A stretch of 64,000 bases of DNA, taken from assembly GCA_000002435.2 (NCBI GenBank), contig CM018792.1; one strand, 5' to 3'. Shown in pieces: positions 34,339 to 52,491 of this stretch. The stretch comes from Giardia intestinalis. Lineage: Eukaryota. The position numbers and the translations under genes were made by a program. Within the stretch, counting starts at the first letter, position 1; each line of letters starts with the position of its first letter. Under the pieces are notes generated by a model. The model was not told where the DNA came from, did no database searches, and saw nothing but the letters and a program-made list of their open reading frames with translations.

Positions 34339-37300
34339 CTAGTTGATTAAATATTGAGAGTTATCCCCAGCAGAAGATCGAAAAAGATCAGATTCGTGGC
34401 CCATATCTTGAAATTGACTCCCTCCCGCTTTCTCAGACCCACGTAAGGAAGTACTGAGGGTTAGATTGTTTGCCCCCGCAGGACTGCGCATCAGAGATCG
34501 GATTGTCTCTTCCTGCTCACTAAGAATGCCACATAGGTTGGAATATTTCTCTTCTTGCAATGCATGCGCTCTGTGCAACGATGCAAAGGAATCTTTCTGC
34601 TCAGTCATTGCTTGAAGAAGCCCAGCAATTACGTTTTCCTTCTCTTTCAGCTTCTTCTGCAGAGATTCCACTTGAGCATTCTGTGGTGCAGCGTTAAATG
34701 CTCGTGCAGCAGCAGCATTGGCCGCTGCAAGCTTCTCCTCCATGATTCGCATCGAGTACTCCGCTGCTTCAGCTGCTTCCTTGGCCCTCTTTTCATAGTC
34801 TGAAGACTTATTTTCTGTAGCCCTCAGTCGGGCCTGGATGCTGAGCATGGTACGCAGGCGGTCATTTTCCTCGTCCTTTTCTGCGAGAAGCTTGTCGTAG
34901 TCGATGTCAGAGAACTTGTATTCGGTGACAATCTGTGGTTTCAAAGCACCAACGGAGTTAAGCTGTTCTTTGAGAGCTTCAATTTGATTATTTAAAGTGG
35001 CAATCTCATGCCGGTGGCCAGATTTCAGCCTTTCCAAGTCGGACCCACCGCTGGAAGGCGACACCGGAGGCGAATAGACAGGCACTTCTTTGACAATCTC
35101 CACTTTTTTAATGTTACGCTTTTCAGCGGCTAAATCATCCGTCAAGCGTCTAATCTCATCGTCCTTTCTCTTAAGCTCTTGCTCACATTCAGAGATCTGG
35201 GCACGTAGCTCTTCTAGTTCTTTTTCGAGACGTTCTATCTCATAGGAATCAATAGCCGGTGTCTGCTTGCAAGACGTTATCATTTCCGCAGGCTCTGCAG
35301 GTACAGGTTCAGACACCATCCATGTATCAAATGGCAACTCCGGAGGTGTGTCGACACGGTCAACCCGAGGGACTTCTGCGAGGTTGTATATCGAGATGTC
35401 GGCTTTACGCGCCGTGACCTGAGAGCAAACATCAGCACTCATCCACGTGTCGTACGAAAGCTCCGGAGGCGTGTCGACACGGTCAATCCTCGGGATCTCA
35501 ACCATTGCTAGCTCAGGGATATCCGATTTGCGTATAGTCCGGAACCCTCTTTCGGTGCTTCCTATCCACGTGTCGGAAGGTAATTCTGGAGGCGTGTCGA
35601 CGCGCTCGACAACAGGTATACCCGCCTGACCGTAAGTTCTCTGAATGTGTATAGTAGGTACAGGCATGTCTCTACACTGCTCCAAGCGTGCTTGAAGTTC
35701 GTTTATGATCTCATCCTTTTCAGCGATTACTCTACGAAGCTCGTCATATTCTGTTGTGGACACATACATGCGTGATTGATGCGCTGGAGATTCCAGTGAA
35801 AACAGGCCACAGTCCACGGGTGTTGGTAGGCGCTCAACTACGGGAACATCCACAAAGTCAAATGTAACGGCCTCCATGCGTGCACGAGGCAGCACATCGA
35901 CGTCATCTGGCATCCATGTATCGTATGGTCCAGCTGGTGGGGTAGGCAAGCGATCTGGAGAATCATCAAGAAAATCGATAGCAACAGGCTGGATTCGTTG
36001 CGTCTCTATGGTCAGATCAGCAATATAATTTCTCAGCCGCTCAATCTCCTCTCCCTGCTCGTTAATAAGATTCTCCAATCGATCGATTTCTATCGTATAA
36101 ATGGAGGTATCTATTCCCGATACGTCTGACCTGACTGCTGAACGGCTATATGCATTCTGCAGCTCGAGGGTCTTGCTCGCAAGCTCACTCCTCAATCTGT
36201 CTATCTCGTCGGTGCTCACCAGCCCCTGCTTACATGTGAGGTTATAAACAATTTGCTGCAGCCGACTGATCTCTGCATCCTTGCCAAGGAGCAAATCAGA
36301 GGTGTCCAGAGTCCTCACAGGAGCTTGCTGTGCCACAGTCAGAAGCTTGAGAGATTTCATTCCAATCTCATTCTCGGTGATATAATCTCTGAGTCGCTCT
36401 ATTTCAGTGCCTTGCTCCTCCAACTGCATCTCCAGTCTCTCTATCTCCGACGTGTAGACAGATGCATCTAAGGTTGTATCACGAAAGGCAGCCTTGGACG
36501 ACTGCATGGTGATCTCGGCATAGCGCTTTCTAAGCTCCTGAAGCTCTTCTTCAAGTGTGTCCGCCCGCGCCTTGCTCTGAAAGGCCTCTAATGAGGCACG
36601 GTCCAAGAGTTTGCGGAGCTCTTCTGAATCGTCTAGCAAAGGCACCTGCGCACGTACAAAGGCTGGTTGTGCAGGGGATGGTTGATAACTATAGAGCAAC
36701 TTTTGCAGGCGAGAGATCTCGTCATCCTTTCTTCTTAAGATCTTGTCCATGTCAACGACCAGTGACGCACTCGCGGCAGGTTGGATCGGGGGCATACGCA
36801 CGGACTCTATGTCCCTCTCGGCTATGTAATCACGCAATCTCTCTATCTCCGCGCCTTGCTCGTCTACTAATGTTTCGAGCCGTGAAATCTCTGTTGTGAA
36901 GATAGACGAGTCAGTTATTGCACGGCCGCTTTTGAGCTCCTCCAGCTCTATAGTCTTCTTGTTAAGCTCATGCTCATAAGTGATAAGTTTGTCAGTGAGA
37001 GCATTTATCTCTAGAAGTTGATCTCCTGACGAAAGAGAGGATGCACATGCTCCGTGGGAGAAAGCATCATCATGAACTTGGGCGCGTCCAGCGCACCGCA
37101 AGCACAGAGACAAGCTTTCAAGAGATATCAGGGAAGCAGATCCACAGTCAGAGAACATCGTTGTTTGGTCATTAACGCAAGAGAGCAACTCCCTAACAGC
37201 CGCCTCAATGACTGAGACATCGAACTCCTCTTGATATTCTGCACGCCCACGCTCTAAATTCGTCTTCAACTGCACTAGAATTTTCTGGGCCTCAATAGCT

Positions 37301-38124
37301 TCTCGTGCCGTGCTATAGACACATATTTGGGCCTGCACCTTACTGAGGTAATAACGCGTGGTAGCGGAGTAGTACCTCTCCTTGATCGACACTAGATTGG
37401 CCTCAGAAAGCATGAAGGGATAATGCGAAGGGTCCACCATACTGCGCAGCACTGTGTCAAGGTGAGTAACTGCGATTTTATATGAAAGTGCCGCTTTAGC
37501 GAAAGCATGCATGACACCCAGATTGTCCTGAAGTTCAGTTTGAGACTGCGCCTCGTACCCTAGTCCACGGACCATCTCTGCAAGCCCGCTTAGATACGCC
37601 TTTGTCATGGGGCCCGTTTGTCCACTCGCCATGTTGGAGGCCTCGTCAAAGAAGTGTCCCGCTCTCGCATAGAGTGTTATTTGCATGGTCTTGTCTGCCC
37701 TTGAGGCCTCAGATGCAGAAATGCAACCCAGTGAATAAAGCACATTGGTAAGTTCAGATGATAAAATTGCCGTTCCCGAGAGTAAAGCAGTGGAGGTGGA
37801 ATCGTCGACCTCCTGATGCTGATAGAGAGCAAAGGTCCAACGCGGCAGATGGCTCTGCTTTTCAGAGCCGACAAGAGATATGTTCCGGAAATCAGAACGA
37901 GTGACCAGCTGCAGGAGGAGGTTCCGCGCTTCCAGCATACTCTCGTATGAATCTGTCCTTGTGCGAAGACCCTGAACTCGCTCAAGAAGGGTGGTGGTCG
38001 ATAAATCGTCTGAGTTGAGCTTTTTAGCAATGAGCTTCGCCAATAGCGTATACACAGAGCCATTATCCAGGGGTTTCCTTTCTTGTGGAAGGATACTTGG
38101 AAGGGCCTGGGACGGCGTCTGCAT
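34339..38124 (-). CDS. large coiled-coil protein (1261 aa) with internal repeats
   Basis: Long heptad-rich stretches. Three copies of S(I/V)(F/Y)T.EI.RLE.L..EQG.EIERLR.YI. Three or four copies of a ~41-aa unit containing RVDTPPELP.DTW(M/I). Confidence 0.65.
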   Translation of the reverse strand: MQTPSQALPSILPQERKPLDNGSVYTLLAKLIAKKLNSDDLSTTTLLERVQGLRTRTDSYESMLEARNLLLQLVTRSDFRNISLVGSEKQSHLPRWTFALYQHQEVDDSTSTALLSGTAILSSELTNVLYSLGCISASEASRADKTMQITLYARAGHFFDEASNMASGQTGPMTKAYLSGLAEMVRGLGYEAQSQTELQDNLGVMHAFAKAALSYKIAVTHLDTVLRSMVDPSHYPFMLSEANLVSIKERYYSATTRYYLSKVQAQICVYSTAREAIEAQKILVQLKTNLERGRAEYQEEFDVSVIEAAVRELLSCVNDQTTMFSDCGSASLISLESLSLCLRCAGRAQVHDDAFSHGACASSLSSGDQLLEINALTDKLITYEHELNKKTIELEELKSGRAITDSSIFTTEISRLETLVDEQGAEIERLRDYIAERDIESVRMPPIQPAASASLVVDMDKILRRKDDEISRLQKLLYSYQPSPAQPAFVRAQVPLLDDSEELRKLLDRASLEAFQSKARADTLEEELQELRKRYAEITMQSSKAAFRDTTLDASVYTSEIERLEMQLEEQGTEIERLRDYITENEIGMKSLKLLTVAQQAPVRTLDTSDLLLGKDAEISRLQQIVYNLTCKQGLVSTDEIDRLRSELASKTLELQNAYSRSAVRSDVSGIDTSIYTIEIDRLENLINEQGEEIERLRNYIADLTIETQRIQPVAIDFLDDSPDRLPTPPAGPYDTWMPDDVDVLPRARMEAVTFDFVDVPVVERLPTPVDCGLFSLESPAHQSRMYVSTTEYDELRRVIAEKDEIINELQARLEQCRDMPVPTIHIQRTYGQAGIPVVERVDTPPELPSDTWIGSTERGFRTIRKSDIPELAMVEIPRIDRVDTPPELSYDTWMSADVCSQVTARKADISIYNLAEVPRVDRVDTPPELPFDTWMVSEPVPAEPAEMITSCKQTPAIDSYEIERLEKELEELRAQISECEQELKRKDDEIRRLTDDLAAEKRNIKKVEIVKEVPVYSPPVSPSSGGSDLERLKSGHRHEIATLNNQIEALKEQLNSVGALKPQIVTEYKFSDIDYDKLLAEKDEENDRLRTMLSIQARLRATENKSSDYEKRAKEAAEAAEYSMRIMEEKLAAANAAAARAFNAAPQNAQVESLQKKLKEKENVIAGLLQAMTEQKDSFASLHRAHALQEEKYSNLCGILSEQEETIRSLMRSPAGANNLTLSTSLRGSEKAGGSQFQDMGHESDLFRSSAGDNSQYLIN
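35319..35690 (-). repeat. three tandem ~124-bp coding repeats (RVDTPPELPxDTW units) inside the coiled-coil gene; a fourth degenerate copy lies near 35905-35960
   Basis: Plus-strand copies ccatgtatcaaatggcaactccggaggtgtgtcgacacggtcaa (35319-), ccacgtgtcgtacgaaagctccggaggcgtgtcgacacggtcaa (35443-) and ccacgtgtcggaaggtaattctggaggcgtgtcgacgcgctcga (35567-); period 124 bp. Confidence 0.7.
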
Positions 38125-38486: not shown

Positions 38487-38492
38487 TTTACT
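38487..38492 (-). terminator. putative poly(A) signal AGTAAA overlapping the TAA stop of the FG/RanBD gene
   Basis: Minus strand reads ...AAGTAAACCGAGC. Confidence 0.45.
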
Positions 38493-39390
38493 TGGTGTGC
38501 TCCTCTGCCTTCCCCTCGCTGGAGTCTTTCTGCGGCATTGCTGCAAGACAAGTGTCGCGGAGCTCCTCCGTTGCGAACTTAAAGAGCGCGATCATGGAGG
38601 TCTTCGTTAGATCGTTGTGGATGGCGAGCTTGAGGTATCGCTTCTTATCGGGAACAACGTTCACATCCTTTGTTAAGCGTGAGTTTATTGCAACAATACT
38701 CGTTCCAACGCGCGAAAAGACGAGCTGGCGATCTTCTGGCGACTCCTCTACGCTAATAATCTGCAAGTATCCTTTGTTCTTGGCAACCCACCTACCATCC
38801 TCCTTATCATAGTGGTAGAGCTCGACGTCCCCGCCTTCGAAAAGACTGTTCTTGTTTTGATAATCCTTTTTGTCGACTGATTGGGTGGTCGTGTAGTTCT
38901 TAGCCGAAACCAGAGAGGCGTTATGCTCTGCAACTGGTGGACCCTGGGCGTTGTCGTCTGCCTTTAATGGCCCCATGTTGGGAAAGCTAAATGCTGCCTT
39001 AACTGTTGGCTCTAACGGTTTGCATGCTGCGATTCCTGTAAATGAGAACGCGAAAGTTGCAGTGCTCTCCTTAGTAGCATTCTCCGATGCTTCGTTTGTC
39101 TTGGTCTTCTTTGACTCGGTGGTAGGTTTGGGTAACGGGCCGTCTGCAGGCTCTGCCGCTTGCTTATCTATGTGTCCGTGAGACCTGAGAGATTTGCGTG
39201 GAGGTTCTTGGTCGGGTATGTAACCAAATGAGAACTTGAAATCTGAAGCAGGAGTGGGAGCAGGGACTGAGGCAGGCTTTTCTCCAGTAGGATTCTTGTC
39301 GTCGGTGCTTGCAGGCACAAATCCAAACTTGAATTGGGGCGGATCACGGGCCTCTTCCTTCTTTTCCTGGACGCCGAGAAGGTCGGGCAT
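38488..39390 (-). CDS. FG-repeat protein with a C-terminal Ran-binding (RanBD/PH-like) domain (Nup50/Nup2- or RanBP3/Yrb2-like)
   Basis: N-terminal FxF/FxFG-type motifs (FKFGF, FKFSFG, FAFSF, AAFSFP) in a disordered K/T/P-rich region. C-terminal ~110 aa LFEGGDVELYHYDKEDGRWVAKNKGYLQIISVEE...LVFSRVGTSIVAINSRL...KRYLKLAIHN...SMIALFKFATEELRDTCLAAM follow the RanBD1 pattern (LFxxRAKLFRFDxExKEWKERGxGxxKILxH...RxVMRRxxTxKxxxNHxI...). Confidence 0.5.
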   Translation of the reverse strand: MPDLLGVQEKKEEARDPPQFKFGFVPASTDDKNPTGEKPASVPAPTPASDFKFSFGYIPDQEPPRKSLRSHGHIDKQAAEPADGPLPKPTTESKKTKTNEASENATKESTATFAFSFTGIAACKPLEPTVKAAFSFPNMGPLKADDNAQGPPVAEHNASLVSAKNYTTTQSVDKKDYQNKNSLFEGGDVELYHYDKEDGRWVAKNKGYLQIISVEESPEDRQLVFSRVGTSIVAINSRLTKDVNVVPDKKRYLKLAIHNDLTKTSMIALFKFATEELRDTCLAAMPQKDSSEGKAEEHTK

Positions 39391-39458
39391 TTGATTTTTT
39401 GCGTCTGCGCGCCGCGCGAGGCAAAAGGCAACTCAGAGATGAAAACCGCAAGTTAACG

Positions 39459-39464
39459 TTTACT
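39459..39464 (-). terminator. putative poly(A) signal AGTAAA overlapping the TAA stop of histone H3
   Basis: Minus strand reads GGGCAAGTAAACG. Confidence 0.5.
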
Positions 39465-39900
39465 TGCCCTTCCTGTACTCGGGCTCGATCCGCTTGCCGA
39501 TCCGGGTCGCAAGCTCCATGTCGGGCTTCATGATCGTGACGCGCTTGGCGTGCTCGGCGCAGAGCTGCGTGTCGACGAAGAGCGAGATGATGTAGTTCTC
39601 CGCAGACTCCTGGAGGGCCTCCACCGCCGCGCCCTGGAAGCGGATGTCGGACTTGGAGAGCCCGGAGGTGACGATGTCACGGACGAGCTTCGAGAAGGGC
39701 AGCTTCCGGATGAGCAGGTCTGTGGACTTCTGGTACTTCTTGATCTCCTTGACCGCGACCATGCCCTGCTTCTTGCGGCCGGTCTTCTTGATCCCGCTCG
39801 TCGAGGACGCCGTCTTGCGTGCGGCCTTGCGCGCGATCGTCTTGCGCGGCGCCTTCGTCGCGCTGGTCGTCTTGCGTGCCGTGTGCTTGGTGCGTGCCAT
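39460..39900 (-). CDS. H3: histone H3 (divergent, Giardia-type), 146 aa
   Basis: [29 protein letters not shown]...[25 protein letters not shown]...[50 protein letters not shown] aligns along its whole length with canonical H3 ([27 protein letters not shown]...[25 protein letters not shown]...[20 protein letters not shown]). The ORF track extends upstream to 40029; the true ATG is at 39898-39900. Confidence 0.85.
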
Positions 39901-39913
39901 TTTGTTCCCCGCC

Positions 39914-39929
39914 CTTTTTGGCCAAAAAG
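39914..39929. promoter_or_regulatory. perfect 16-bp palindrome CTTTTTGGCCAAAAAG, 14-29 bp upstream of the H3 ATG
   Basis: Equals its own reverse complement. Lies between the him motif and the H3 start. Confidence 0.5.
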
Positions 39930-39935
39930 ATTGAT

Positions 39936-39950
39936 CCCAAATCTGCGCCC
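39936..39950 (-). promoter_or_regulatory. Giardia histone promoter motif (him): GGGCGCAGATTTGGG
   Basis: Exact match on the minus strand to the published consensus G[AG]GCGCAGATTT[ACG]GG shared by G. lamblia core histone promoters. Located ~40-50 bp upstream of the H3 ATG. Confidence 0.6.
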
Positions 39951-40296
39951 CATCGTGTGAAATTTCATTTAAAATGTCATCTTGGTGACTGCGAACACGG
40001 GCTGGCAAATACCTTACTATAGTAGACATCTATAGTACTCACGTTTTCTGCAAAACATGCTATTAAGATGACAAGGGCAACCATGGATGTCAAAGGGCTG
40101 CGACATATGGTTAGTCTCGCAGATCTCCTCAGCGAGCTGGACTTTTTGCAGACAGAAGCTCCAGAAGAATTGGTTTTGAGCATGGTGCTGCAAATGGTGT
40201 TTGCAATCCATCACTCTCCACTAGGCTCGATATTCTGTTGCCGCGTCGGACCTCACGGTTGGGTCAGAAAGCATATACATTGATAACAGAAGGGTC

Positions 40297-40716
40297 ATGG
40301 CCTTCGATACGTCGTCGTGTACTAGCGATTGGCAATCCAAGCAATCTCGCCAACCCGGCCCGCGTGATGATCTACTTCAATCTTACGATGACCCCAGCCT
40401 GTGGATTATAGCAAATTTACAGAGCATGATCGCATATGCTAAGAGACTACATGTGCGTGGATGCGATTCTCTAGTCTCCGCATTAGCAAACCTAGTACAA
40501 CAAGGATATACTGACCTTAGCGACATACTTGCGTTCCCGGAGCTGTTTGCACCATTTAACCTACTATTCAATAGGCTTAGACCGGTAATCGGGGCGCTTC
40601 AAATGCCGCTGATGATTCTAATAAAATTTTGTCCACGGATGGTTGAAAGCTCAGGGTTCCTGGACGTACATCAGGCACAGCTAGATTTCAGGATGTCTGT
40701 GCCCGCACGGCTTTGA
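40297..40716 (+). CDS. hypothetical small protein (139 aa)
   Basis: ORF with an ATG, divergent from H3; no similarity I recognise. Could be non-coding. Confidence 0.25.
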   Translation: MAFDTSSCTSDWQSKQSRQPGPRDDLLQSYDDPSLWIIANLQSMIAYAKRLHVRGCDSLVSALANLVQQGYTDLSDILAFPELFAPFNLLFNRLRPVIGALQMPLMILIKFCPRMVESSGFLDVHQAQLDFRMSVPARL

Positions 40717-40968
40717 TGTACGCAGTGCACTATGACTAGAAGCTGTGTTCTATTTTAGCACAGCATGAAGCAGAACTACTGACAAAAATGGATGCTGCTT
40801 CAACTCATCGATTTCAGTGCGTCTTCGACCTAATTTCACACGAAGTTTGGATGAGGCAAAAGCCTAGCGAGGAGTTTCCCTCGGAAAGCGCGCATATGAC
40901 TATGCAATAATGCGCAATAGAACCCTCTGGGCACAAGTACTACAGTACTACAGCAGTATGCCGTTGGG

Positions 40969-43900
40969 TCATATGCATAGACGGTCGAGCTGCGCCAAGA
41001 TAGGAGTATTAGGCGGTAGGTATGCGCGTATTCGCATCCCTATATTTTTCTTATTGATAGATGCTTGGGAGGGGTCGTATCCCAGTGATCCCAGCTCGCT
41101 GTATTTGCGAACGAGAGCAATCATGTAGTAGCATAGAACCTTTGACACATAGGAGAAGTCCTCTTTTAGAAGATCAGGAACAGGTATGGATTCCATAACA
41201 GCTGCTGTGTCTATCTGGGTGTTCCCTACCGTGCTTACTCCACCTTGATGCAGCCCCAGCACCTTCCAAATAGAGTCAATGCTGTGTATAAGGTTGGCAA
41301 CAAGGGCTTTTTCGCGTATTGTCACAACATCTGTTGTAAATAAGTTCAGGACAAATTGGGCAGCCAATCTTTCATATTGCTGCTTTGGATCGTATGTCTT
41401 GTACCTGTTTGTTGTGAGTAGCGCAAAAATGGTCATAGGGATGACAAAGTCAAAGGAGGTCAGCTGCAGGTCCGAGCACATCTCTACTATGCTCCGGAAC
41501 ACCTGAGCTGCCTGGCCAATCACATTGGCTGCCTCAAGATCTGAAGAACTGAGACTGTCACTGCGGACGATACCTCTGGTGATGCCTCTGTGGGGGTCAT
41601 TGAGCAGACTCTCCTGTCTAAAGACAAAGCCAGGGAGGGTGGTGCTCGTCAATGCAGCCACCCAATAGCCGCCTAGGGCTGAGCGCTCTTGATTGGGCGT
41701 TGCGCTGGACAACAATATATATACCCCGATGTCACTCAATCGCAGGGGCACTACGCACTGGGTATATAATTCTTGGAGCGGTTTGATGCCGTCTGTGTCC
41801 AGCTGAGTAATGTATTTAGAGACATCCCCATCCTTTATGTTCTGCACCCTGCGAAGCACTACCAGTTGCACACGAGCCGCGACCAGGGTTTCTTTAATCG
41901 ACACCAAGAGCTTCTGCGGGGTAACACCCTGGTCATCTGCTCTACCCTTGTCTGTAGTGGCATAAATATTTCTGGGATAAGCTGCACTCATGGCTCCCTC
42001 CACTCCGAAGGTAGCATCTGCGGCACTGGATTGTCCCGACATACCAAACGGCTGGCTTTCCACCCCTACCAATGGAGCATTTCCAACGGTTCGATATGCC
42101 GTCTGAGCACTAGTTGGCTGTGCAAGTCCGCCACTCTCCAGCTTCGCAAGGGCATCAGATAACATGTTGATACGATCCTGTAGCGTCAGGTATCCCAGCT
42201 GGACCGTGCCATTGACGATTGATGGGAAGATAGCCTGAGTTTTTGCCTCTGTGGCCTTTCTAAACATCGCAACACATATTTTGTCATTGGAGCGTTTCTC
42301 CAAATACCTGAAATAGAGGTAAAAGTTCTGCGTCTTTAAGAAACTCTCTATGTAAGGCGAGACGGCCATTATTAGCCCTAGCGAGGCCCTATTTTCAATA
42401 ATCTTTAAAACGGTGACTACTGCTACACTTGTATCGCATTGTGAGTCTTCTTGGAGAGCTTTCAAAATGCATGCTGCAGTGTAGTAGTGCGCATACAAGA
42501 AGTAGTACAACTGCATCTGCCAGACTTTGGATGGACACTGAGTAATGGCCACACGAAGAACGGTGACAATCTGTCCAGACGCTGTCCCCGACGTTGCGCT
42601 TGCGGCGGTATGGATTGACCGCAGGGGGACGCCGGTTAGAGCAAAGAGGCTATCTGCATCGTGCACTCCAGACTCCACATCCGCAGCCATTTCAGTGAAG
42701 GTGCCTGGCCTGCCAAATTGGGTGTATCCACCAAAGTGACTGAATGCAGCACCGGAGAGATCTCTCAACCCGTTGGTTCCGTGCATAGCTGAGCCCTGGG
42801 GTCTCAATAGCTCGTATATCCCTGCTAAAAGATAGCCCTGACTGAGGATATCAAGGGCTTTGCTGCAGAGATTGCAAACTTTTGATATCGAGGCTTGCCA
42901 ATCTTTCCTGGGAATCGTAGACATAAGAAGCTCATTGTGTACCAACGCATCAAAGCCGTTGTCAATTTGAAAGGGGAATTTGACAATTCCAGAGTCTATG
43001 CTAGCTTGAAGCTCCTTGAGCCGTGTAAAAGGCCCTTGGCCAACTGTCTGATGGCAGCAACCTTTATAATAATCATATGCACGATTAATATTTGTCTGTA
43101 GAACTTTGTGAAATACGTCTTTTAACGAGCCTTCCAACTCTGGAGAACCTTGAGGGTTCCCCTGAGGCGCCATGAGATTATATGCGCGACCCTTGTGTCC
43201 ATAGGCTCCCTGGACAAGCCCTGCATTTTGTTCTGCATGAATACCGAGAGGCCCCTTGATGCTAGCCAACTTGCCATCATCTCCCAGAGCGTCCAATAAA
43301 GCAGTTTCGTCATCAAAGACCCTTATTAGAAGCAGTACGATGCACGCGGAGAAGTTCCCCATCCCTTTCAGGACATCGAGGATTGGCTCAATGGGCTCGA
43401 TGCTTGATTGAGAGCGCACCAGTGTATCTATGGCCCTGCGAATTATCAAATTCCGCCGCTCTGGAGGTAGTCTCTTGGCCTGCTCTAGCTGCTGCAGAAC
43501 CTGGATTCGCACACTATAGACACTGTGCAGGACCTGACAGTGCTCTTTGAGCTGCGCTGAAAAATCACAGTTCACGCCGTAGCGCAAAGACGCCGCCCGT
43601 AACAGCGAGTGGTTATGGCGACTAATACTGGAGGCCCCAGGAATCTCTGTCACGTCGCCTACAGAGAGTGTACGAATAATTTCATCCAAAAGGACCCGGG
43701 TTTCAGGGAGAAATATGCCGTGAATAGAGAGAAGGTCGCAATATATGCCGCACGACAAGCCATCATATACACTGGTGGAAAGCGTATTCACGCTCTGCTG
43801 CTTATTCCTCTTGCTGTTTTTCTGGGTGGCCATGGCGCCATCATGTCCGCTTGAAAATACCATTGGGTGTCCATGGAGCCGGGCAAAGTTGTTCAAGCAC

Positions 43901-46530
43901 GTGCTAGCATAGATTATTCTGGACGGATGAATGATTAGGCTGACGAATCCGATTGCTTCTGAGATGCTTCCCAATGATTCAAAGATCGTTTCCACCTTGT
44001 CAGCGTCTTGCTGTGCGCTATCCACAACAATCAATCGATTGTAGTTGATTTGCATAAAGCGCAGCAGTTGGTTGAGTCGTTCTCTAACACCTAGAAGCTC
44101 GTCCATGGTCCACGTCAAGGATGCCATTGTGTGAGAGCTATCCAGAAAGAGAGGGACCCCTTGAGTCGAGGCTTGAAAGGAAAGATTCTTTGTGAGTGTG
44201 GTGGTGGATAGTCTAGTCGACGACGCACGGAAGATGGACTTTGTACTTATATGGGATGTAGATACAGCCCGGTTTGCAGGGTGCGTATCAATGATACCCT
44301 CTTTATAAGCGCGACGACCCTCTTCGCTGAAGTCTATGCATACCCTTTGGCGTGCTGCTGAATGCGACCTTTTCTTTTCAGTGTAGGCAGCCCCTCCTTG
44401 GACTGTATTCTCGCTCTCTGTTCGTTGTGTAGCTTTAGAGAAGAATGTCGATAGGCGGTGCACTGCTCCATCTTTGTTATCTGACTCACCACTTTGAATC
44501 GCATAAGCGCGGGGAGCAGTTACTGGAGCCCCCTTCCAATAAGGGTATATCGACAACGGACCCATTAGGCGGGCAATGTAACGCTTCAAAGCTGCAATCT
44601 GGACACAGTTAACTGCAGTCATGCCCTCAAAGAAGTGCTGAGTCGCACACTCTGACACTTTCGAAGACGAGTATTGAGAAGCAATAGCAAGGAGCATGCA
44701 ATAGAATTCGTGATCTCCATAGAGATCCCTTTGCTTTGAGACATCAACTTTGTCGCGCAGGAGTGCGTGGAGCCTCTCTAGTGGAGTAGAAATGTTGTAA
44801 ACAATTATTGTCGAGGTTGTAATGATGGCTATTGTACGTGGAGAGTGAATATATTGGTAAAGCTGAGGATTCGAAGAAAGGTATGTGGTGGAAAGTGCGA
44901 GGCTCCCTGCTTGGGAAGAATCCAGTTCTACTACGTCTACGATCTTCTGCTGGTGTGGCTGTGGAGTAGCGCCCACTTGCGTCTGACCTCCACTAAAGAC
45001 ATCAAGCAACAGTTCTCTGGTGCACCTCTGGACACGTGGCTGGACAGAAATCTCGTTCACAGATCCACACACCGCACTTTGCTGGGATACATCATCGAAG
45101 AAACAGGCAACAGAGAGTCCACGAGAACGGAAAAAGCTTATGCACGAGGATCCAACAAGGCTTCTGATGCCTTGGAATGGCGTTCTAACCTGTTTGAGGA
45201 CCAGTTTGTCATAGTTGAAATCGTATGCCTGATTGTGCTTTGCATCCTGCTTGCCCATTGCAGCCATGAAGTCCGCATAGTACTCATTTTTGAGTGTGTA
45301 TGTGTCTTTGGCCACCCCGCAGGCCGATAGACTGTAATAGAGCTCTAGTCCTGTATCGGTCATTGCAACTAAAGTGAAGGTTACGCTTTCTGATAAAGTG
45401 ATTGGCCAAATTTGTACAATGGATGCCTGGGAGTCGTTGGAATACATGCTTAGATCCTTCTGGAATGAGGTGTATGGCTTTAGTTTGCGAAAAGATGATA
45501 TGCAGCTGTCATCAAAGACATATACGGTGATCCTGTTATCTTCGTGAAGTGTGTACAGGAGTCCTCTGGTATCATCTACTACTGCCTGTTTAATGGGCTT
45601 GGGCCGTAAAAGGTCTGAAATAAAGGGAACATGCGACAAGACTGGGATAGACGTATGATCTATCAACCGAGCCCTGCCGACTCCAGCACTACTGGAAGAA
45701 AAGCCGCCAGGCAAAATACCTCTTGCTGCCGAAAGAAGTCCAATATTTGAGAGAAGACCCTCATTTTGAGAACTATATACCACTTCTATGAGAGACCCGG
45801 TTGTTAATCCTGCGAAGAGTCTGCCTGTTTGAGTACCAACCAACTGGGTTACAGCGGCATCCGTGGGTAGGGTTACGCTTAGTTGTGACTCAGCGATGAT
45901 AAACCTTTCTTGCTGCAAAGTTGCTGCTAGGGTCTCTTCAGATGAGGAGCCAGCTGCCGACAGCCTAACACCGAAGGAGACTGTCTTCCTTTGAAGAAAC
46001 GCTTTTGTGGTTACGTCGGTATCTATGCTTGGCGCACCACGAGACATAGCGGGAGGTTGCACTGCTGTGTTGTTGAGCGTGGAGGTGGCCTTTGGGTAGG
46101 TTACTGGATAGAGCTTAATTTGGTTTGTAAGCGCTACGGCCAAAAGGTACCGCGTTTCCACAGCAAACGTTAAGGGAGCTGGAGTAATTATTAAACAACA
46201 ATCTATATAAGCATCTAGTTCCAACCTAATTATGCGCCGGTTGTCGATGAGGTCAACGAGAATAAGTTCATTATCAATCGCAGTCCAGACGTAGTTGATT
46301 TCGGGCAAAAACCCCATACGCAGCTGCCGCTCAACGTTGTTACCAAGCGTAGTCAGGGCAGGGGGCAGATTGAACGTATGCTGTCTAATAAAGGCCCTCT
46401 CACCGGAACCGGGAGAAAGAACAACCTCTGATAGTCTCGGTAAGGCACACTCGAGGTCAGCTGCTACTGCGTCCTTCTCGTAGAGCTCCCTGCACGTCTT
46501 AAGGAGATCCACGACATGTGAGGCAGACAT
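40969..46530 (-). CDS. Nup155/Nup170/Nup157-like nucleoporin (1853 aa)
   Basis: N-terminal RQLRMGFLPEINYVWTAIDNELILVDLIDN...LLAVALTNQIKLYPVTY aligns closely with the conserved Nup170/Nup155 N-terminal beta-propeller segment (yeast Nup170 [26 protein letters not shown]...HLLLISTTMELFMFAIS; human Nup155 [25 protein letters not shown]...HLLVLATPVDIVILGLSY). The remainder is long and predominantly helical. Confidence 0.6.
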   Translation of the reverse strand: MSASHVVDLLKTCRELYEKDAVAADLECALPRLSEVVLSPGSGERAFIRQHTFNLPPALTTLGNNVERQLRMGFLPEINYVWTAIDNELILVDLIDNRRIIRLELDAYIDCCLIITPAPLTFAVETRYLLAVALTNQIKLYPVTYPKATSTLNNTAVQPPAMSRGAPSIDTDVTTKAFLQRKTVSFGVRLSAAGSSSEETLAATLQQERFIIAESQLSVTLPTDAAVTQLVGTQTGRLFAGLTTGSLIEVVYSSQNEGLLSNIGLLSAARGILPGGFSSSSAGVGRARLIDHTSIPVLSHVPFISDLLRPKPIKQAVVDDTRGLLYTLHEDNRITVYVFDDSCISSFRKLKPYTSFQKDLSMYSNDSQASIVQIWPITLSESVTFTLVAMTDTGLELYYSLSACGVAKDTYTLKNEYYADFMAAMGKQDAKHNQAYDFNYDKLVLKQVRTPFQGIRSLVGSSCISFFRSRGLSVACFFDDVSQQSAVCGSVNEISVQPRVQRCTRELLLDVFSGGQTQVGATPQPHQQKIVDVVELDSSQAGSLALSTTYLSSNPQLYQYIHSPRTIAIITTSTIIVYNISTPLERLHALLRDKVDVSKQRDLYGDHEFYCMLLAIASQYSSSKVSECATQHFFEGMTAVNCVQIAALKRYIARLMGPLSIYPYWKGAPVTAPRAYAIQSGESDNKDGAVHRLSTFFSKATQRTESENTVQGGAAYTEKKRSHSAARQRVCIDFSEEGRRAYKEGIIDTHPANRAVSTSHISTKSIFRASSTRLSTTTLTKNLSFQASTQGVPLFLDSSHTMASLTWTMDELLGVRERLNQLLRFMQINYNRLIVVDSAQQDADKVETIFESLGSISEAIGFVSLIIHPSRIIYASTCLNNFARLHGHPMVFSSGHDGAMATQKNSKRNKQQSVNTLSTSVYDGLSCGIYCDLLSIHGIFLPETRVLLDEIIRTLSVGDVTEIPGASSISRHNHSLLRAASLRYGVNCDFSAQLKEHCQVLHSVYSVRIQVLQQLEQAKRLPPERRNLIIRRAIDTLVRSQSSIEPIEPILDVLKGMGNFSACIVLLLIRVFDDETALLDALGDDGKLASIKGPLGIHAEQNAGLVQGAYGHKGRAYNLMAPQGNPQGSPELEGSLKDVFHKVLQTNINRAYDYYKGCCHQTVGQGPFTRLKELQASIDSGIVKFPFQIDNGFDALVHNELLMSTIPRKDWQASISKVCNLCSKALDILSQGYLLAGIYELLRPQGSAMHGTNGLRDLSGAAFSHFGGYTQFGRPGTFTEMAADVESGVHDADSLFALTGVPLRSIHTAASATSGTASGQIVTVLRVAITQCPSKVWQMQLYYFLYAHYYTAACILKALQEDSQCDTSVAVVTVLKIIENRASLGLIMAVSPYIESFLKTQNFYLYFRYLEKRSNDKICVAMFRKATEAKTQAIFPSIVNGTVQLGYLTLQDRINMLSDALAKLESGGLAQPTSAQTAYRTVGNAPLVGVESQPFGMSGQSSAADATFGVEGAMSAAYPRNIYATTDKGRADDQGVTPQKLLVSIKETLVAARVQLVVLRRVQNIKDGDVSKYITQLDTDGIKPLQELYTQCVVPLRLSDIGVYILLSSATPNQERSALGGYWVAALTSTTLPGFVFRQESLLNDPHRGITRGIVRSDSLSSSDLEAANVIGQAAQVFRSIVEMCSDLQLTSFDFVIPMTIFALLTTNRYKTYDPKQQYERLAAQFVLNLFTTDVVTIREKALVANLIHSIDSIWKVLGLHQGGVSTVGNTQIDTAAVMESIPVPDLLKEDFSYVSKVLCYYMIALVRKYSELGSLGYDPSQASINKKNIGMRIRAYLPPNTPILAQLDRLCI

Positions 46531-46631: not shown

Positions 46632-47417
46632 ATGTTATTGGGCCACGGACCAAATCCGATTACGGCATACCTTGCGCATCTTTCGGCCGTTCCGCTTGGA
46701 ATTTATAAGACAGGTTACAGCACTTCTGCAGACACCCAGGCGTCTACTTTTTCAAGACATTCGCAGCATTCGCAGAGTGCAGATTGTGGCACAGAAGCTG
46801 CATTTCACTCCACGAAAAGCGTAGAAGCGGAGCATTTTGAAACACCTCACGGCCTCAAGTACTCTGAGGAAGAGGGTTACAATCCTCAGCCACTAAGGAC
46901 TCACCTAACGTTTTCGAGTTTGTCATCAGCGGTTCATTCTGGAGACGCTAGCAGTCAGAGCAAGGCGAGCTGCTCTTCTACTGCTCGAACTGATCCCGTC
47001 ATTGACAACATTTCACCAGATCTTTGGCGGAAGATCTCTCGCATCAGTGCACTGTTGCAAAACGTCGCACTTTCTATGTCCCAGGCAAGGAGTTCCCCAG
47101 AGAGCAGCAGATTTATGTCGCGGCTATCTGAAAGCAACGCAGCTAGCTCCAAATTTTACACGTCCCTTGGAAGCTTTAGTACAAGCACGCGTGACTTTGA
47201 TCTGAAGCAGATTGCCAGCATGCTGAGCGAGGTGATTGATAGCAGCCTTCAAAACGGAAGATCCGACGGTGCATCTCCCTCCGATCCTGAACTAAATCGG
47301 GAGATAGATGAGTTGGTGGCACAATATAACGACATGGCCTCGCTTGCTATCTCTTTGGGATCAGAGGCTCCTCTTATATCCACTACAGCATCTGTGAAGC
47401 AAAGTTCCCCTGAATAG
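46632..47417 (+). CDS. hypothetical Ser-rich protein (261 aa)
   Basis: ORF with an ATG. Head-to-head with the Nup155-like gene, 101 bp apart. Confidence 0.4.
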   Translation: MLLGHGPNPITAYLAHLSAVPLGIYKTGYSTSADTQASTFSRHSQHSQSADCGTEAAFHSTKSVEAEHFETPHGLKYSEEEGYNPQPLRTHLTFSSLSSAVHSGDASSQSKASCSSTARTDPVIDNISPDLWRKISRISALLQNVALSMSQARSSPESSRFMSRLSESNAASSKFYTSLGSFSTSTRDFDLKQIASMLSEVIDSSLQNGRSDGASPSDPELNREIDELVAQYNDMASLAISLGSEAPLISTTASVKQSSPE

Positions 47418-47766: not shown

Positions 47767-50700
47767 ATGCCACCAGCTCACAATCGAAAGATCTGCGTGT
47801 CCGGTGCACAGGGCTTCCCCCCGCCCCCTAGTGACGCCTATCAGTTTACTACCATGGAGACTAAGCAGCCTCTTCATGAGTATTTTCCCCGCTGCCTGTA
47901 CTACACGTATCACTGGCTAAGCCCAATAATAAAGCTTATCAAACGGCAGGGAGCCATATATCCACGAGATGTGTACATACTTCCCCGTCATATGCGCGTT
48001 TCCGAGGCTTCAAGGCGACTGGTAGGTGCATGGAATCGAACTGTCGCCAGGGATGCTGCGCGCGGCAAAAAGCGCATGTCTTCCCTTATCTCGATATGTA
48101 TTCGTGCGTACAAGAGCAGCATGCTCATTATTTTCTGTCTTATTCCAGTTTACACATTTTTGGGCCTCGTTCCTTCAATTGCCTTGAACAACCTAACCAC
48201 CATTCTTGCAGAGGAGAACATTAGAAGGATATCGCTGGACTACTTGCTTACCACGGGCCAGCAGGCGTCCGTTACCTATCTCATCGGCCAGCTGTTCGCC
48301 AAGGCCGTCCCTTGGATTGGCCTCGTCTTTGTATCCCAGATAACCCTCGCGTTTCTCATCAATATATCCATGTTGAAGAACTTCGAGGTCAACACCATGA
48401 CGTCCCAGGCGCTTTCTGACCTGTTATATCGTAAGCTTCTCACTCTGTCTGAGCTCTCGCGCTCCTCCTCCATCAGTGGAAGCATTATTAATTTTATCTT
48501 TACTGACACCGGCAGAATCACGGACTTCCTTGCCTTCATCCCGATGTTCACTGCAGTCCCCTTCCGGCTCGTCTATTCTATCGTTATTCTCAGTACTACA
48601 ATCAACCCCTTAACGATGGTGGGGATCATTGGCGGGCTCACAACATCTCCACTGCTGGTTCTTTTCATCCGGCGCCAGCTCTGGTTCACTAAGCACTATA
48701 TGTGCTACAAGGACCTCCGAATAAAGCGTGCTACTGAGGTCCTCACAGGCATTCGTGTTATTAAGTATTTCTCAATGGAGAAACTGCAAGCAATTCGTCT
48801 TCATAGCGCTCGAGACCGCGAGTTGTCCCACCTAATTAACATAAAAATGAATAGCGCATACACCGTGATTGTCACGTCTACCACGGGGCCCTTGATGCTC
48901 ACTCTTGCGCTGACAACTCTAGCACTTGCGGGTTACCTTGACAATGCCACTGCGTACAGTGCAGCGCTCGTCATCAACACACTAAGCATGATATTCAACC
49001 AGCTTCCCCAGTTGTTAGCAAAGTTATTCGAAAGCCTGATTAGCAGTGATCGTCTCATAGCGTTTTTTAACTTACCAAACAAGGACGGACAAGTGTTCTG
49101 TTTGAGAACGCTGGAGGAGTGCTGTGCTCACTCCACAGACTCTGGACCTAGCATGCAAGATCGCGATGCATCGACAAATGAAGACAATGACGACAAGTGT
49201 GGTATAGGTAGTGGAGATGTTATCCTCAGTACTGTTGGAAATCCATCTTATTCGTGGGGCACTGCAAAACACCTTTCCTTGCCAATAATCCTCGATCCAT
49301 TATTTAAGCAGACGCAGGACACAATTAAGAAGTTTGCACGGCAGCTTCCGGTCCTTAATAATCAACTAGCTCGCGCACTAGCTACGCTTGATAGGGACCC
49401 TGCATATTCCATCCTACTCCGCTCTAACCCACTTACAGCACAGAGGGGGGTAGATGCCGATCAGTCCACTGACGATGAACAAGAGACCAGCTCTATTCTA
49501 TCGAGTGCCACTGACAGGCCTCTCGAACCTCGTAAAATTGGCCTACAGGACGATTGCTTACAAGCTGTCGTTGTCTTTACTCAATCGGTATCAGCTCAGG
49601 AGTGGGACGCGCTGCATAAACCAGTTACTACATCGTGTGTACATCTTGATAAATGGTGCAAGGACTGCGACACTATTCCCTTCTCTACTATTGACCAGAT
49701 CTCATCCTACAAGGAGACGTCTTACCTGCCACTACAAGAGGACAATCCGCTAACAGTCGTGAAGAAGATATATGTCCACTGCGCTGTCATGACCTTCTTC
49801 TTGACAGATCCCAAGTTTGACAGCCACCGAGCAAGCTTCAAGGTGGCTCGTGAGATACTTACGACCAAGGATAGCTTCCCTAATGTCATCAACAACTTAG
49901 ACTTCAAGGTGAAGCGAGGAGCCTTGGTCGGCATTCACGGGCGCGTTGGATCTGGAAAGAGTTCACTTCTTCTTGCACTGTTAGGAGAGCTCGCAAATAC
50001 AAGTCCAGAGAAGCAGGCCCGCATCCACTGCACCGCCAGCATTGCCTACTGTCCGCAGCTCCCGACTATTTTTTCTGGCACACTGAAATCCAATATATTA
50101 TTTTTTAAAGATTGTGACGAGGATAGATTGAAAAATGTTATTAAAATATGTGCTCTTGAGACAGATCTGAATAGCATGGCTCACGGTGTGGACACGGAAA
50201 TTGGTGAACGGGGCATCACATTGTCTGGTGGGCAAAAGGCAAGGATTGCGCTTGCACGCGCCGTGTACTCAGACGCGGACATATTTCTCCTGGACGATCC
50301 TCTTTCAGCAGTTGACGCCCATGTCGGCAGCACCCTATGGAATGATTGCATATTGAACTATCTTGTACGAGAGCAAGGGAAAACAGTGATAATTGTGTCG
50401 CATCAGATACACTTCTTCTCTGACTGCGATGATATTTATGAGATGAATAATGGACACCTAACTCGCATGACTCTCGAGGAGATGCGGAACCAGAATCTGA
50501 TTTCTGTCTCTTCTATGTTGACAGACACTGGTTCTCTGGCCAACGCCGCTACTAAGAGCACCCTACAACTTGATATTGGAGAAGCAGAACAGCCCGTTCC
50601 CCAGAAGGCGGTGCGAATGATAGAAGACGAAAAGCACGCCGCTATAGGCCGGGTTCAATTAGGTGTATACCACGCGTGGATAAAGGCAGGAGGCTACGGA

Positions 50701-52491
50701 ATCTTCTGGGGATACATACTATTGACACTAACTGGCAACGGCATACTGCAGTACCTTGGCCTGTACATCAATCACTGGTCTTCTAATCTGTATGGTTTCT
50801 CATCGGCAGGGTACATTGTGCTTTACGTGAGTATTTCTATGCTATATATTCTAATAGTCTTTTTAGAGCGGGTTGCCTTTATTAAGAGCTCTGTTAACGC
50901 TACGCGCACCCTACACAACAGGATGGTCGATGCCGTCCTCAACACACAACTGTTCTTTTTCGAAACCAACCCATTAGGTCGGATCCTCAACAGGCTCAGT
51001 CGAGACACAGATCAGTGTGACTCAGCAATTCCAAACAGCATTGTGTCGCTCAGCAATGACCTCCTCTATTTGCTGGTTAACCTGCTTGTGATTATGTTAC
51101 TTTCGTGGCCAACCATTGTCTTCATCATCCCCCTAGGGATACTCTACATCTTTATCTTTAACACGTTCAGACTAATAGCTCCTCAGCTAAAGCGTATCAC
51201 TCCTATCCTTTCTAGTCCCATACTCGCACTTGTGCAGGATTCCCTCACCGCGTTGCCATCTATAAGGTGCTATGGAAGTGAAGACCATCTCATAGAGCTC
51301 AACAGACTAAACCTTACGCGGAGCTACAGCGCGGACTGGCTTATGCGTGTGATGAATAGGTGGCTGAGCTTTCGCGTCAATGTGATCATGGGGATATTTG
51401 CATCGTTGGTGAGCATGAGCGTTGTCATTATTGCTCCCATTGGCAACAGTGCGCGCTATACCGGCCTAATTCTTATGAATAGCTTCACACTCATCAGCAG
51501 GCTGATTATGCTCGCCTTTTCTATTAACAGTTTGGAGAGTTCTATGAGCAGCGCAGAGCGCGTCCTGGAATATGGGAAGTTGAAGGGAGAGGAAGATGGT
51601 CTAACATATCCCGCTTTATCGACACAGAGTGCAGACCCAGCGAAGTTTGTTGACGTGTCATCGCTTTCCTTGCGCTATAGAAAAGATCTTGACTTAGTAT
51701 TGCGAAATGTGTCCTTTTCGGCCCACCGTGGAGAGCGTATTGGCATTGTTGGCCGCACAGGTGCTGGTAAGTCATCGATAACCGCAGCCATGTTTCGCTT
51801 GGTTGAGCCCGAGCCAGGATCGAGCATAATTGTTAATGGAGTGGACCTGCTCTCAGTTCCACTTGATGATGCACGTGCTCAACTGACCATCATCCCCCAG
51901 GACCCGTTTCTATTCTCAGGCACTATAAGGACCTGCCTCTGCTTTTACTCCCAATTGACAGCAGAAGGAATAACTCCCAAAGATATGCCTCCTGGTGTTG
52001 AGCGGATCTCGGACGAGAAACTCTGGCGGGTGCTCGAGCAGGTCCGCATGCGCGAGTACTTCGAGAAGCAGCCTGGCGGACTCGACGCCAAGATCACAGC
52101 TAACGGGGACAACCTCTCTGCAGGTCAGCGCCAGCTTGTCTGTGTGGCCCGTGCACTACTACGAGACGCACCAGTGGTTATTCTGGATGAGGCCACCGCC
52201 CAGGTCGACCGGGAAAACGACGCCATAATCCAGTCCACGATCCGTACAGCGCTGGAAGACCGCGTCGTCATCGCCATTGCACACAGGATCAATACTATCA
52301 TCGACTTTGACAGAATCATAGTTATGGACGCGGGCGAGGTAAAGGAGTTCGACACCCCCAGGGCGCTCCTGAGCAACCCAGAGTCGTTCTTCAGCAGACT
52401 AGTTGCTAAGTGCGAGGATGCAGAGGAGCTTTACCAAAAGGCATATGCCAAGGGCTCGAAGACGAACTCGGACCCAGAACGTGCAAGCTGA
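47767..52491 (+). CDS. ABC transporter, ABCC/MRP subfamily (full transporter: TMD-NBD-TMD-NBD)
   Basis: NBD1 has Walker A GRVGSGKSSLLLALLGE, signature LSGGQKARIALARAVY and Walker B IFLLDDPLSAVD. NBD2 has GRTGAGKSSITAAMFRL, LSAGQRQLVCVARALL and VVILDEATAQVD. Two blocks of ~6 TM helices. The translational start could instead be the METKQ Met at ~47854. Confidence 0.9.
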   Translation: MPPAHNRKICVSGAQGFPPPPSDAYQFTTMETKQPLHEYFPRCLYYTYHWLSPIIKLIKRQGAIYPRDVYILPRHMRVSEASRRLVGAWNRTVARDAARGKKRMSSLISICIRAYKSSMLIIFCLIPVYTFLGLVPSIALNNLTTILAEENIRRISLDYLLTTGQQASVTYLIGQLFAKAVPWIGLVFVSQITLAFLINISMLKNFEVNTMTSQALSDLLYRKLLTLSELSRSSSISGSIINFIFTDTGRITDFLAFIPMFTAVPFRLVYSIVILSTTINPLTMVGIIGGLTTSPLLVLFIRRQLWFTKHYMCYKDLRIKRATEVLTGIRVIKYFSMEKLQAIRLHSARDRELSHLINIKMNSAYTVIVTSTTGPLMLTLALTTLALAGYLDNATAYSAALVINTLSMIFNQLPQLLAKLFESLISSDRLIAFFNLPNKDGQVFCLRTLEECCAHSTDSGPSMQDRDASTNEDNDDKCGIGSGDVILSTVGNPSYSWGTAKHLSLPIILDPLFKQTQDTIKKFARQLPVLNNQLARALATLDRDPAYSILLRSNPLTAQRGVDADQSTDDEQETSSILSSATDRPLEPRKIGLQDDCLQAVVVFTQSVSAQEWDALHKPVTTSCVHLDKWCKDCDTIPFSTIDQISSYKETSYLPLQEDNPLTVVKKIYVHCAVMTFFLTDPKFDSHRASFKVAREILTTKDSFPNVINNLDFKVKRGALVGIHGRVGSGKSSLLLALLGELANTSPEKQARIHCTASIAYCPQLPTIFSGTLKSNILFFKDCDEDRLKNVIKICALETDLNSMAHGVDTEIGERGITLSGGQKARIALARAVYSDADIFLLDDPLSAVDAHVGSTLWNDCILNYLVREQGKTVIIVSHQIHFFSDCDDIYEMNNGHLTRMTLEEMRNQNLISVSSMLTDTGSLANAATKSTLQLDIGEAEQPVPQKAVRMIEDEKHAAIGRVQLGVYHAWIKAGGYGIFWGYILLTLTGNGILQYLGLYINHWSSNLYGFSSAGYIVLYVSISMLYILIVFLERVAFIKSSVNATRTLHNRMVDAVLNTQLFFFETNPLGRILNRLSRDTDQCDSAIPNSIVSLSNDLLYLLVNLLVIMLLSWPTIVFIIPLGILYIFIFNTFRLIAPQLKRITPILSSPILALVQDSLTALPSIRCYGSEDHLIELNRLNLTRSYSADWLMRVMNRWLSFRVNVIMGIFASLVSMSVVIIAPIGNSARYTGLILMNSFTLISRLIMLAFSINSLESSMSSAERVLEYGKLKGEEDGLTYPALSTQSADPAKFVDVSSLSLRYRKDLDLVLRNVSFSAHRGERIGIVGRTGAGKSSITAAMFRLVEPEPGSSIIVNGVDLLSVPLDDARAQLTIIPQDPFLFSGTIRTCLCFYSQLTAEGITPKDMPPGVERISDEKLWRVLEQVRMREYFEKQPGGLDAKITANGDNLSAGQRQLVCVARALLRDAPVVILDEATAQVDRENDAIIQSTIRTALEDRVVIAIAHRINTIIDFDRIIVMDAGEVKEFDTPRALLSNPESFFSRLVAKCEDAEELYQKAYAKGSKTNSDPERAS

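Follow-up and report, generated by a model that had tools for sequence, protein, structure and literature searches.

A putative nuclear cofactor with FxFG motifs and a Ran-binding domain encoded beside histone H3 and the Nup155 orthologue of Giardia intestinalis

The analyzed window is a stretch of 64,000 nucleotides of contig CM018792.1 (assembly GCA_000002435.2). Its source is Giardia intestinalis assemblage A, isolate WB, and all open reading frames (ORFs) that were looked up are exact matches to WB reference proteins. Two ORFs, designated here ORF-A and ORF-B, are located on the minus strand on either side of the histone H3 gene; the order on this strand is ORF-B, H3, ORF-A, and all three genes lie within 8 kb. 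ORF-B (positions 40969-46530) encodes a protein of 1853 aa (XP_001709507, KAE8303621, UniProt A8B474) that is annotated as "Nuclear pore complex subunit" and is the orthologue of Nup155/Nup157/Nup170. The H3 gene (39460-39900, minus strand) encodes 146 aa. ORF-A (38488-39390, stop codon included, minus strand), which corresponds to GL50803_14213 (300 aa; XP_001709504, UniProt A8B470; 100% identity to P0014), is annotated as "hypothetical protein". The initial annotation of the stretch had already placed both ORFs at these positions, with H3 between them, and the peptide that it quoted, MGFLPEINYVWTAIDNELIL, corresponds to residues 72-91 of ORF-B.

The N-terminal half of the ORF-A protein (38881-39390, minus strand, residues 1-170) is a disordered, low-complexity region rich in P, A, K, T and S. 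The region contains four FxF(G) clusters, namely, FKFGF (residues 20-24), FKFSFG (51-56), FAFSFTG (113-119), and FSF (134-136). All 11 phenylalanines of residues 1-170 are inside these clusters, and the number of FxF matches (seven) was reached in none of 100,000 shuffles. AlphaFold2 modeling gave no confidently modelled part within the region. Motifs of the FxFG/FSFG type are docking sites for receptors of the importin-beta family. Only two canonical FxFG motifs are present in ORF-A (FKFG, 20-23, and FSFG, 53-56), the two other clusters being degenerate, and all of them are located upstream of the C-terminal domain considered below. Conservation of the clusters extends to relatives with as little as 31-33% full-length identity (values approximate; about 40% in the domain-anchored alignment); F115-S116-F117 as well as F134 and F136 are invariant in 7/7 aligned relatives. 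They are present in four other G. intestinalis assemblages and in G. muris (KFSFG, TFNF). In addition, a diverged relative, P0012, which originates from the Logan run SRR31929897, has four to five FxF motifs in the clusters DFKFSFG, AFSFS, MFSFG, and FKFDF.

The initial annotation described ORF-A as an "FG-repeat" protein with a Ran-binding domain (RanBD). The FxFG-like motifs turned out to be non-random and conserved, and the "FG-repeat" label is overstated. No long FG-repeat arrays were found: ORF-A has two FG dipeptides and four FxF clusters, and each relative has one to three FG dipeptides. With so few dipeptides per protein, a barrier-forming FG-repeat nucleoporin is ruled out.

The C-terminal part of ORF-A (38533-38862, minus strand, residues ~177-286) comprises a divergent Ran-binding domain with a PH-like beta-sandwich and a C-terminal helix. 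Single-sequence and shallow searches gave no significant result. A phmmer search of the PDB with ORF-A alone retrieved the RanBD of RanBP2 at E = 0.31, the profile of five sequences from G. intestinalis assemblages had no PDB match, and the AlphaFold2 model based on the same shallow alignment had a predicted local distance difference test score (pLDDT) of 33. A profile search of 1.8 billion representative proteins revealed two diverged relatives of ORF-A, with E = 3.5e-35 and, for P0012, 4.2e-18, and a third homologue search at E <= 10 added only one more G. muris-like sequence. The orthologues from other G. intestinalis assemblages have 298-307 aa, those from the G. muris-like genomes have 221-223 aa, and P0012 has 287 aa. 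Since no RanBD protein outside the ORF-A family was found at E <= 0.001 in the profile search of the representatives, HMMER alone does not tie the family to canonical RanBDs.

The tie came from the comparison of P0012 with Pfam, the PDB profile search, hhalign, and the fold comparison. P0012, searched by itself, passes the gathering score of Pfam Ran_BP1 (PF00638) with 26.5 bits, its match covering model positions 15-117 of 122 (103 positions). The search of 177,635 PDB sequences with a seven-sequence profile retrieved only RanBDs, those of RanBP3 at E = 9.2e-5 to 1.7e-4 and that of RanBP2 at E = 0.039; RanBP3 was the top PDB sequence match both for this profile and for P0012. The contig that carries P0012 is 22 kb in length, gene-dense, and eukaryotic; P0012 resembles RanBDs more than any other member of the ORF-A family does and serves as the key bridge sequence. 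In UniRef, the near-identical orthologue of the DH isolate and those of G. muris are named "RanBD1 domain-containing protein", and the WB and P15 entries are "hypothetical" or "uncharacterized".

A template-free AlphaFold2 model of ORF-A residues 158-300 reached a pLDDT of 76.8 (82-93 in the core) and a predicted template modelling score of 0.70. In the Foldseek comparison, 28 RanBD chains (RanBP2 RBD1-4, Nup50, RanBP3, Nup2, and RanBP1/Yrb1) ranked before the first EVH1 domain. The folds of RanBDs and EVH1 domains are close relatives, and the latter are classic modules of actin regulators. Because of this closeness, the ORF-A domain profile was also compared in the hhalign program with PDB-verified sequences. 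The most significant similarity was noted with the RanBP2-RBD3 fragment (P = 1e-6, probability 91%), followed by the RanBP3 fragment (P = 5e-5, 66.5%) and the RanBP2-RBD1 fragment (P = 2e-4, 44.1%); the values were P = 0.077 and 0.7% for the EVH1 domain of Mena, and P = 0.28 and 0.2% for the RanBD of Nup50.

These results bear on another possible reading, in which this domain is a module of PH fold, similar to EVH1/WH1 or Dcp1, that binds proline-rich peptides and makes ORF-A a nuclear actin-associated adaptor. Such a role would agree with the recovery of GL50803_14213 in a screen for interactors of Giardia actin (PMC8552679). All significant sequence matches of the family are RanBDs, however, Pfam WH1 is unmatched by the family even at E <= 10, and both the Mena comparison and the Foldseek ranking point the same way. 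FxFG motifs are not known from EVH1 proteins. They do accompany RanBDs in RanBP2 and RanBP3 (PMC3045386). The EVH1/Dcp1 assignment was rejected on sequence, the absence of a WH1 match and the hhalign value for Mena being the grounds, and we regard it as highly improbable; the actin link itself may deserve attention, although the sequence evidence favours a RanBD. The RanBD assignment of the C-terminal domain is sound and can be demonstrated, by transitivity, with family profiles and the structure model. The architecture proposed initially, FxFG motifs followed by a C-terminal RanBD, was thereby confirmed by the profile match to RanBP3, the Pfam score of P0012, the AlphaFold2 model, and hhalign.

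The EWKER motif of RanBDs makes salt bridges to the Ran effector loop. This motif, located in strand beta2, and the N-terminal HFEPVV extension are the Ran-contact motifs of the domain (PMC3045386). At the EWKER position, ORF-A has RWVAK (residues 200-204), the G. muris orthologue has EWATQ, and P0012 has TWVQM, so that Trp is the sole invariant residue. In human RanBP3, both elements are also degenerate (SWVER in place of EWKER), which is why its RanBD binds RanGTP weakly, and two FxFG motifs N-terminal to the RanBD mediate the binding of CRM1 (PMC3045386). ORF-A resembles human RanBP3 and yeast Yrb2, which are nuclear cofactors of CRM1 in export, in having a disordered N-terminal region with few FxFG motifs, then a single RanBD, and in being nucleoplasmic; it shares with RanBP3 the W-V of the degenerate motif and the lack of a recognisable HFEPVV extension. 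ORF-A differs from RanBP3/Yrb2 in being much shorter (300 aa), in having almost no tail past the RanBD, in the loss of the motif's E and R, and in that no recognisable N-terminal nuclear localisation signal was identified in it.

The initial annotation left two options for ORF-A, a Nup50/Nup2-like or a RanBP3-like protein. According to the first of them, ORF-A would be the Giardia counterpart of Nup50 (Npap60)/Nup2, a mobile basket nucleoporin that binds importin-alpha/beta as well as RanGTP at the pore's nuclear face and speeds the release of import cargo and the recycling of importin-alpha. The order of parts is the same as in ORF-A, and the Nup50 slot for Giardia is empty in the survey of Neumann et al. 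2010. Against this, none of the seven ORF-A family sequences matches Pfam NUP50 (PF08911) at E <= 10, and the N-terminus of ORF-A, MPDLLGVQEKKEEARD, contains no KR-type basic cluster; unlike Nup50/Nup2, ORF-A thus lacks an N-terminal importin-alpha-binding segment. Its motif keeps Trp, as in RanBP1, RanBP2, and RanBP3, whereas Nup50 has Phe (EFKEK). The hhalign value of P = 0.28 for the Nup50 RanBD contrasts with 1e-6 to 5e-5 for the RanBP2 and RanBP3 fragments.

The PDB chains of Nup50, Nup2, and Yrb2 were all unmatched by the seven-sequence profile at E <= 10. ORF-A has no demonstrable orthology to RanBP3/Yrb2, and the sequences are too few and too divergent for an informative RanBD phylogeny. 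The mNeonGreen fusion of GL50803_14213 was reported by the Paredez laboratory to be "evenly distributed within the nuclei", and enrichment at the nuclear rim was not reported (PMC8552679). Such an even nuclear localisation is expected of RanBP3/Yrb2 and not of a rim-bound nucleoporin. The Nup50/Nup2 assignment was demoted on the missing N-terminal segment and the lack of significant sequence similarity, and we consider it unlikely. The sequence evidence favours the RanBP3 side, since the best PDB match is RanBP3, hhalign separates RanBP3 (P = 5e-5) from Nup50 (P = 0.28), and no importin-alpha segment of the Nup50 type is present; of the two options, the RanBP3-like one is therefore retained.

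As for ORF-B, its N-terminal part (44812-46395, minus strand, residues ~46-573) is the beta-propeller region delimited by Pfam and PDB alignments. The match to Pfam Nucleoporin_N (PF08801) has E = 1.5e-22 and 80.4 bits (gathering cut-off 23.7), its stretches span residues 216-573, and the domain was also found in all five relatives of ORF-B, including that of G. muris. A phmmer search of ORF-B against all PDB sequences gave significant matches only with Nup170, Nup157, and Nup155 chains. With a family profile of six sequences, which includes the G. muris orthologue (37% identity), the 15 best PDB matches (E from 2.2e-17 to 3.5e-5) all belonged to these three proteins, the best values being 2.2e-17 for Nup170, 9e-13 for Nup157, and 1e-9 for Nup155; the sole other row was BstYI at a chance level of E = 0.75. 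The PDB alignments cover residues 46-186 and 301-407 against the Nup170/157/155 propellers. No Nup133 chain was matched in the PDB searches, and the likeness is specific to propellers of the Nup155 type. The Nup155/Nup170 N-terminal signature noted initially is thus well founded.

The propeller is followed by a presumed alpha-solenoid (40969-44811, minus strand, residues ~574-1853) with polar lineage-specific insertions at approximately 666-803, 880-934, and 1257-1309. These insertion blocks are partly absent from the G. muris orthologue (1660 aa), which also carries Nucleoporin_N and is likewise annotated as "Nuclear pore complex subunit". ORF-B shares with human Nup155 and with Nup157 and Nup170 of Saccharomyces cerevisiae the Nucleoporin_N propeller with a conserved segment of the GxFPEI type (MGFLPEINYVW in ORF-B) and a large non-repetitive C-terminal region after it. 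It differs from them in length, 1853 aa versus 1391-1502 aa in the human and yeast proteins (approximately 350-460 residues longer), part of the excess being the polar insertions, and in a C-terminal domain too diverged for Pfam Nucleoporin_C.

Previously, Nup155 was scored as present in diplomonads (Bapteste et al. 2005) and in Giardia (Neumann et al. 2010), and the ORF-B sequence is the "nup155_giardiaL" of the supplementary alignment of the latter paper. The "Nuclear pore complex subunit" annotation most likely rests on homology. By sequence similarity, ORF-B is assigned as the only orthologue in Giardia of Nup155 (Nup157/Nup170 in yeast), a scaffold nucleoporin of the inner ring; this identity was already known, published, and annotated. 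The protein has an N-terminal beta-propeller, after which comes a presumably helical domain that is long, strongly diverged, and interrupted by lineage-specific insertions. As Nup155 does in other eukaryotes, it presumably connects the inner ring with the membrane of the pore. For the DH isolate (assemblage A2), two separate models (864 and 975 aa; ESU37249/ESU37250) take the place of one Nup155 gene, presumably as a result of a frameshift or an assembly error.

The canonical H3 gene between the two ORFs is supported by the Pfam Histone match (2.2e-33). Its product of 146 aa matches Giardia H3 records exactly and falls into a single cluster together with H3 of G. muris and the PDB 7D69 sequence. 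The ORF itself (39460-40029) would encode 189 aa, 43 codons of which precede the true start codon, an ATG at position 39900. In the older RefSeq record (XP_001709505) and in the DH isolate, H3 is modelled with 189 aa; both models look over-extended, because the shorter product of 146 aa is the one to which H3 of G. muris, further H3 entries of Giardia, and the PDB 7D69 sequence correspond. The H3 stop codon is overlapped by a polyadenylation-type signal, AGTAAAC.

Between H3 and ORF-B, the reference annotation places a small hypothetical ORF on the plus strand, GL50803_6458 (40297-40716, 139 aa). It has no Pfam match, is called with 96 aa in other isolates, and has no room in G. muris, where the gap between the Nup155 and H3 genes is 89 bp. 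GL50803_6458 is probably either not a real gene or specific to G. intestinalis.

The initial annotation judged the adjacency of the genes to be probably due to chance and mentioned co-regulation as a possible hint. If ORF-A, H3, and Nup155 were a co-regulated cluster of nuclear genes, their location on the same strand within 8 kb would be accounted for, as would the situation in G. muris (CM016925.1), where H3 follows Nup155 (~37% identity) after 89 bp in the same order and orientation as in G. intestinalis. Genes flanking this pair differ between the two species, the G. muris gene after H3 encoding a 2177-aa kinase, and ordinary synteny explains the conservation of the pair. The G. muris orthologue of ORF-A is located on a different chromosome-scale contig (1.29 Mb versus 2.82 Mb), and the neighbours of the P0012 gene are unrelated (genes for SecE, ArfGAP, and ribosomal proteins). 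The position of ORF-A beside H3 and Nup155 is therefore incidental, and the expectation of a chance adjacency held.

In Giardia, each gene is transcribed on its own, from a short promoter. The AT-rich initiator AAAAAATCAAATG precedes the ORF-A start, and both inspected minus-strand starts, those of ORF-A and H3, are located behind short AT-rich initiator-like sequences. A short AT-rich start region for each gene argues against common regulation, and the genes look compact and individually expressed. A co-regulated cluster was rejected from the synteny with G. muris and the P0012 contig, which gave no signal of co-regulation, and we find this explanation scarcely credible.

Beyond the 5' end of the Nup155 gene, two further exact matches to WB reference proteins are encoded on the plus strand: GL50803_2848 (46632-47417), a serine-rich hypothetical protein of 261 aa in which no domain was found, and an MRP-like ABC transporter of 1574 aa (47767-52491). 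On the other side, GL50803_6464 (34339-38124, minus strand) encodes a coiled-coil protein of 1261 aa that is annotated as hypothetical and has marked internal repeats, namely, three copies of E(I/T)(E/D)RLExxxxEQGxEIERLR(D/N)YI and three to four units similar to RVDTPPELxxDTWM. The remark "(coiled coil domain)" on 14213 in the actin-screen paper better suits GL50803_6464, as ORF-A has no obvious coiled coil.

Taken together, the results make it likely that ORF-A is a nucleoplasmic karyopherin/Ran cofactor of the RanBP3/Yrb2 type, that ORF-B is Nup155, and that the three genes of the locus are ordinary and independently transcribed. Both folds expected by the initial annotation, that of the nucleoporin and that of the RanBD, found support in the profile comparisons.

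From the observed domain, motifs, and localisation of ORF-A we infer that the protein binds Ran and a karyopherin, and in which direction transport would be affected. ORF-A is a small soluble nuclear protein that may work inside the nucleus as RanBP3/Yrb2 does. Its FxFG motifs would tether a karyopherin, the most plausible ones being the divergent CRM1 of Giardia and an importin-beta, and the RanBD would contact RanGTP with low affinity. In this way, the motifs and the domain together would help karyopherin-Ran(-cargo) complexes to assemble or to turn over on the pore's nuclear side. The closest alternative is a role like that of Nup50/Nup2 in taking import complexes apart.

The RanBDs of RanBP1/Yrb1 and RanBP2/Nup358 belong to the same domain family, and the best hhalign match of ORF-A was to one of them, RanBP2 RBD3 (P = 1e-6). 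In contrast to ORF-A, which is nuclear and has no intact HFEPVV and EWKER elements, those proteins are cytoplasmic, bind with high affinity, retain both elements intact, and act with RanGAP. Serpeloni et al. 2011 placed Giardia RanBP1 in category 2 and CRM1 in category 4 (a weak candidate) and did not detect RCC1. Judging by this category score, a separate conventional RanBP1 probably exists in Giardia, which would make ORF-A a second RanBD protein, located in the nucleus. Published inventories for Giardia contain no RCC1 and no Nup50, and their RanGAP and CRM1 candidates are doubtful.

Several points weigh against the reading of ORF-A and ORF-B given above. Taken alone, ORF-A of WB is below the Pfam Ran_BP1 cut-off (E = 0.12, 13.1 versus 23.2 bits), and four of the seven relatives have no Pfam match at all. 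As far as the predicted model goes, the structure comparison cannot tell RanBP3 from Nup50 or RanBP2. RWVAK has lost even the E-R pair that RanBP3 retains, and no conserved N-terminal extension of the HFEPVV type is recognisable in the ORF-A family alignment; because the EWKER motif is degenerate, Ran binding by ORF-A may be very weak or lost. The sole reported interaction of ORF-A is the pull-down with Giardia actin. In ORF-B, the C-terminal domain is under the cut-off of 25.9 bits of Pfam Nucleoporin_C (PF03177), with collinear matches of 14.2 bits (E = 0.018) for ORF-B and 22 bits (E = 8.1e-5) for the G. muris orthologue. In addition, the literature searches found no published localisation or proteomic report for Giardia Nup155, and those on FG-nucleoporins, Nup50, and RanBP3 of Giardia yielded no additional report.

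A bolder proposal, which we rate as unlikely, is that ORF-A and its diplomonad relatives represent a minimal nuclear RanBD-FxFG cofactor that replaces both RanBP3/Yrb2 and Nup50/Nup2, its rewired RWVAK motif serving an unconventional handling of Ran or of nuclear actin.

Among eukaryotes, Giardia is a textbook case of reduction, and nucleocytoplasmic transport in this organism has been poorly mapped: comparative surveys give it Nup155, no Nup50, no RCC1, and weak candidates for RanGAP and CRM1. The identification of the Nup155 gene is correct and adds nothing new to this picture. ORF-A, previously a "hypothetical" protein described only as a nuclear hit of an actin screen, can be re-annotated as a nuclear protein with FxFG motifs and a RanBD. 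This is a modest but useful gain in annotation and not a new kind of system; ORF-A offers a concrete entry point, easy to tag and to test, to the nuclear part of the Ran/karyopherin cycle of Giardia.

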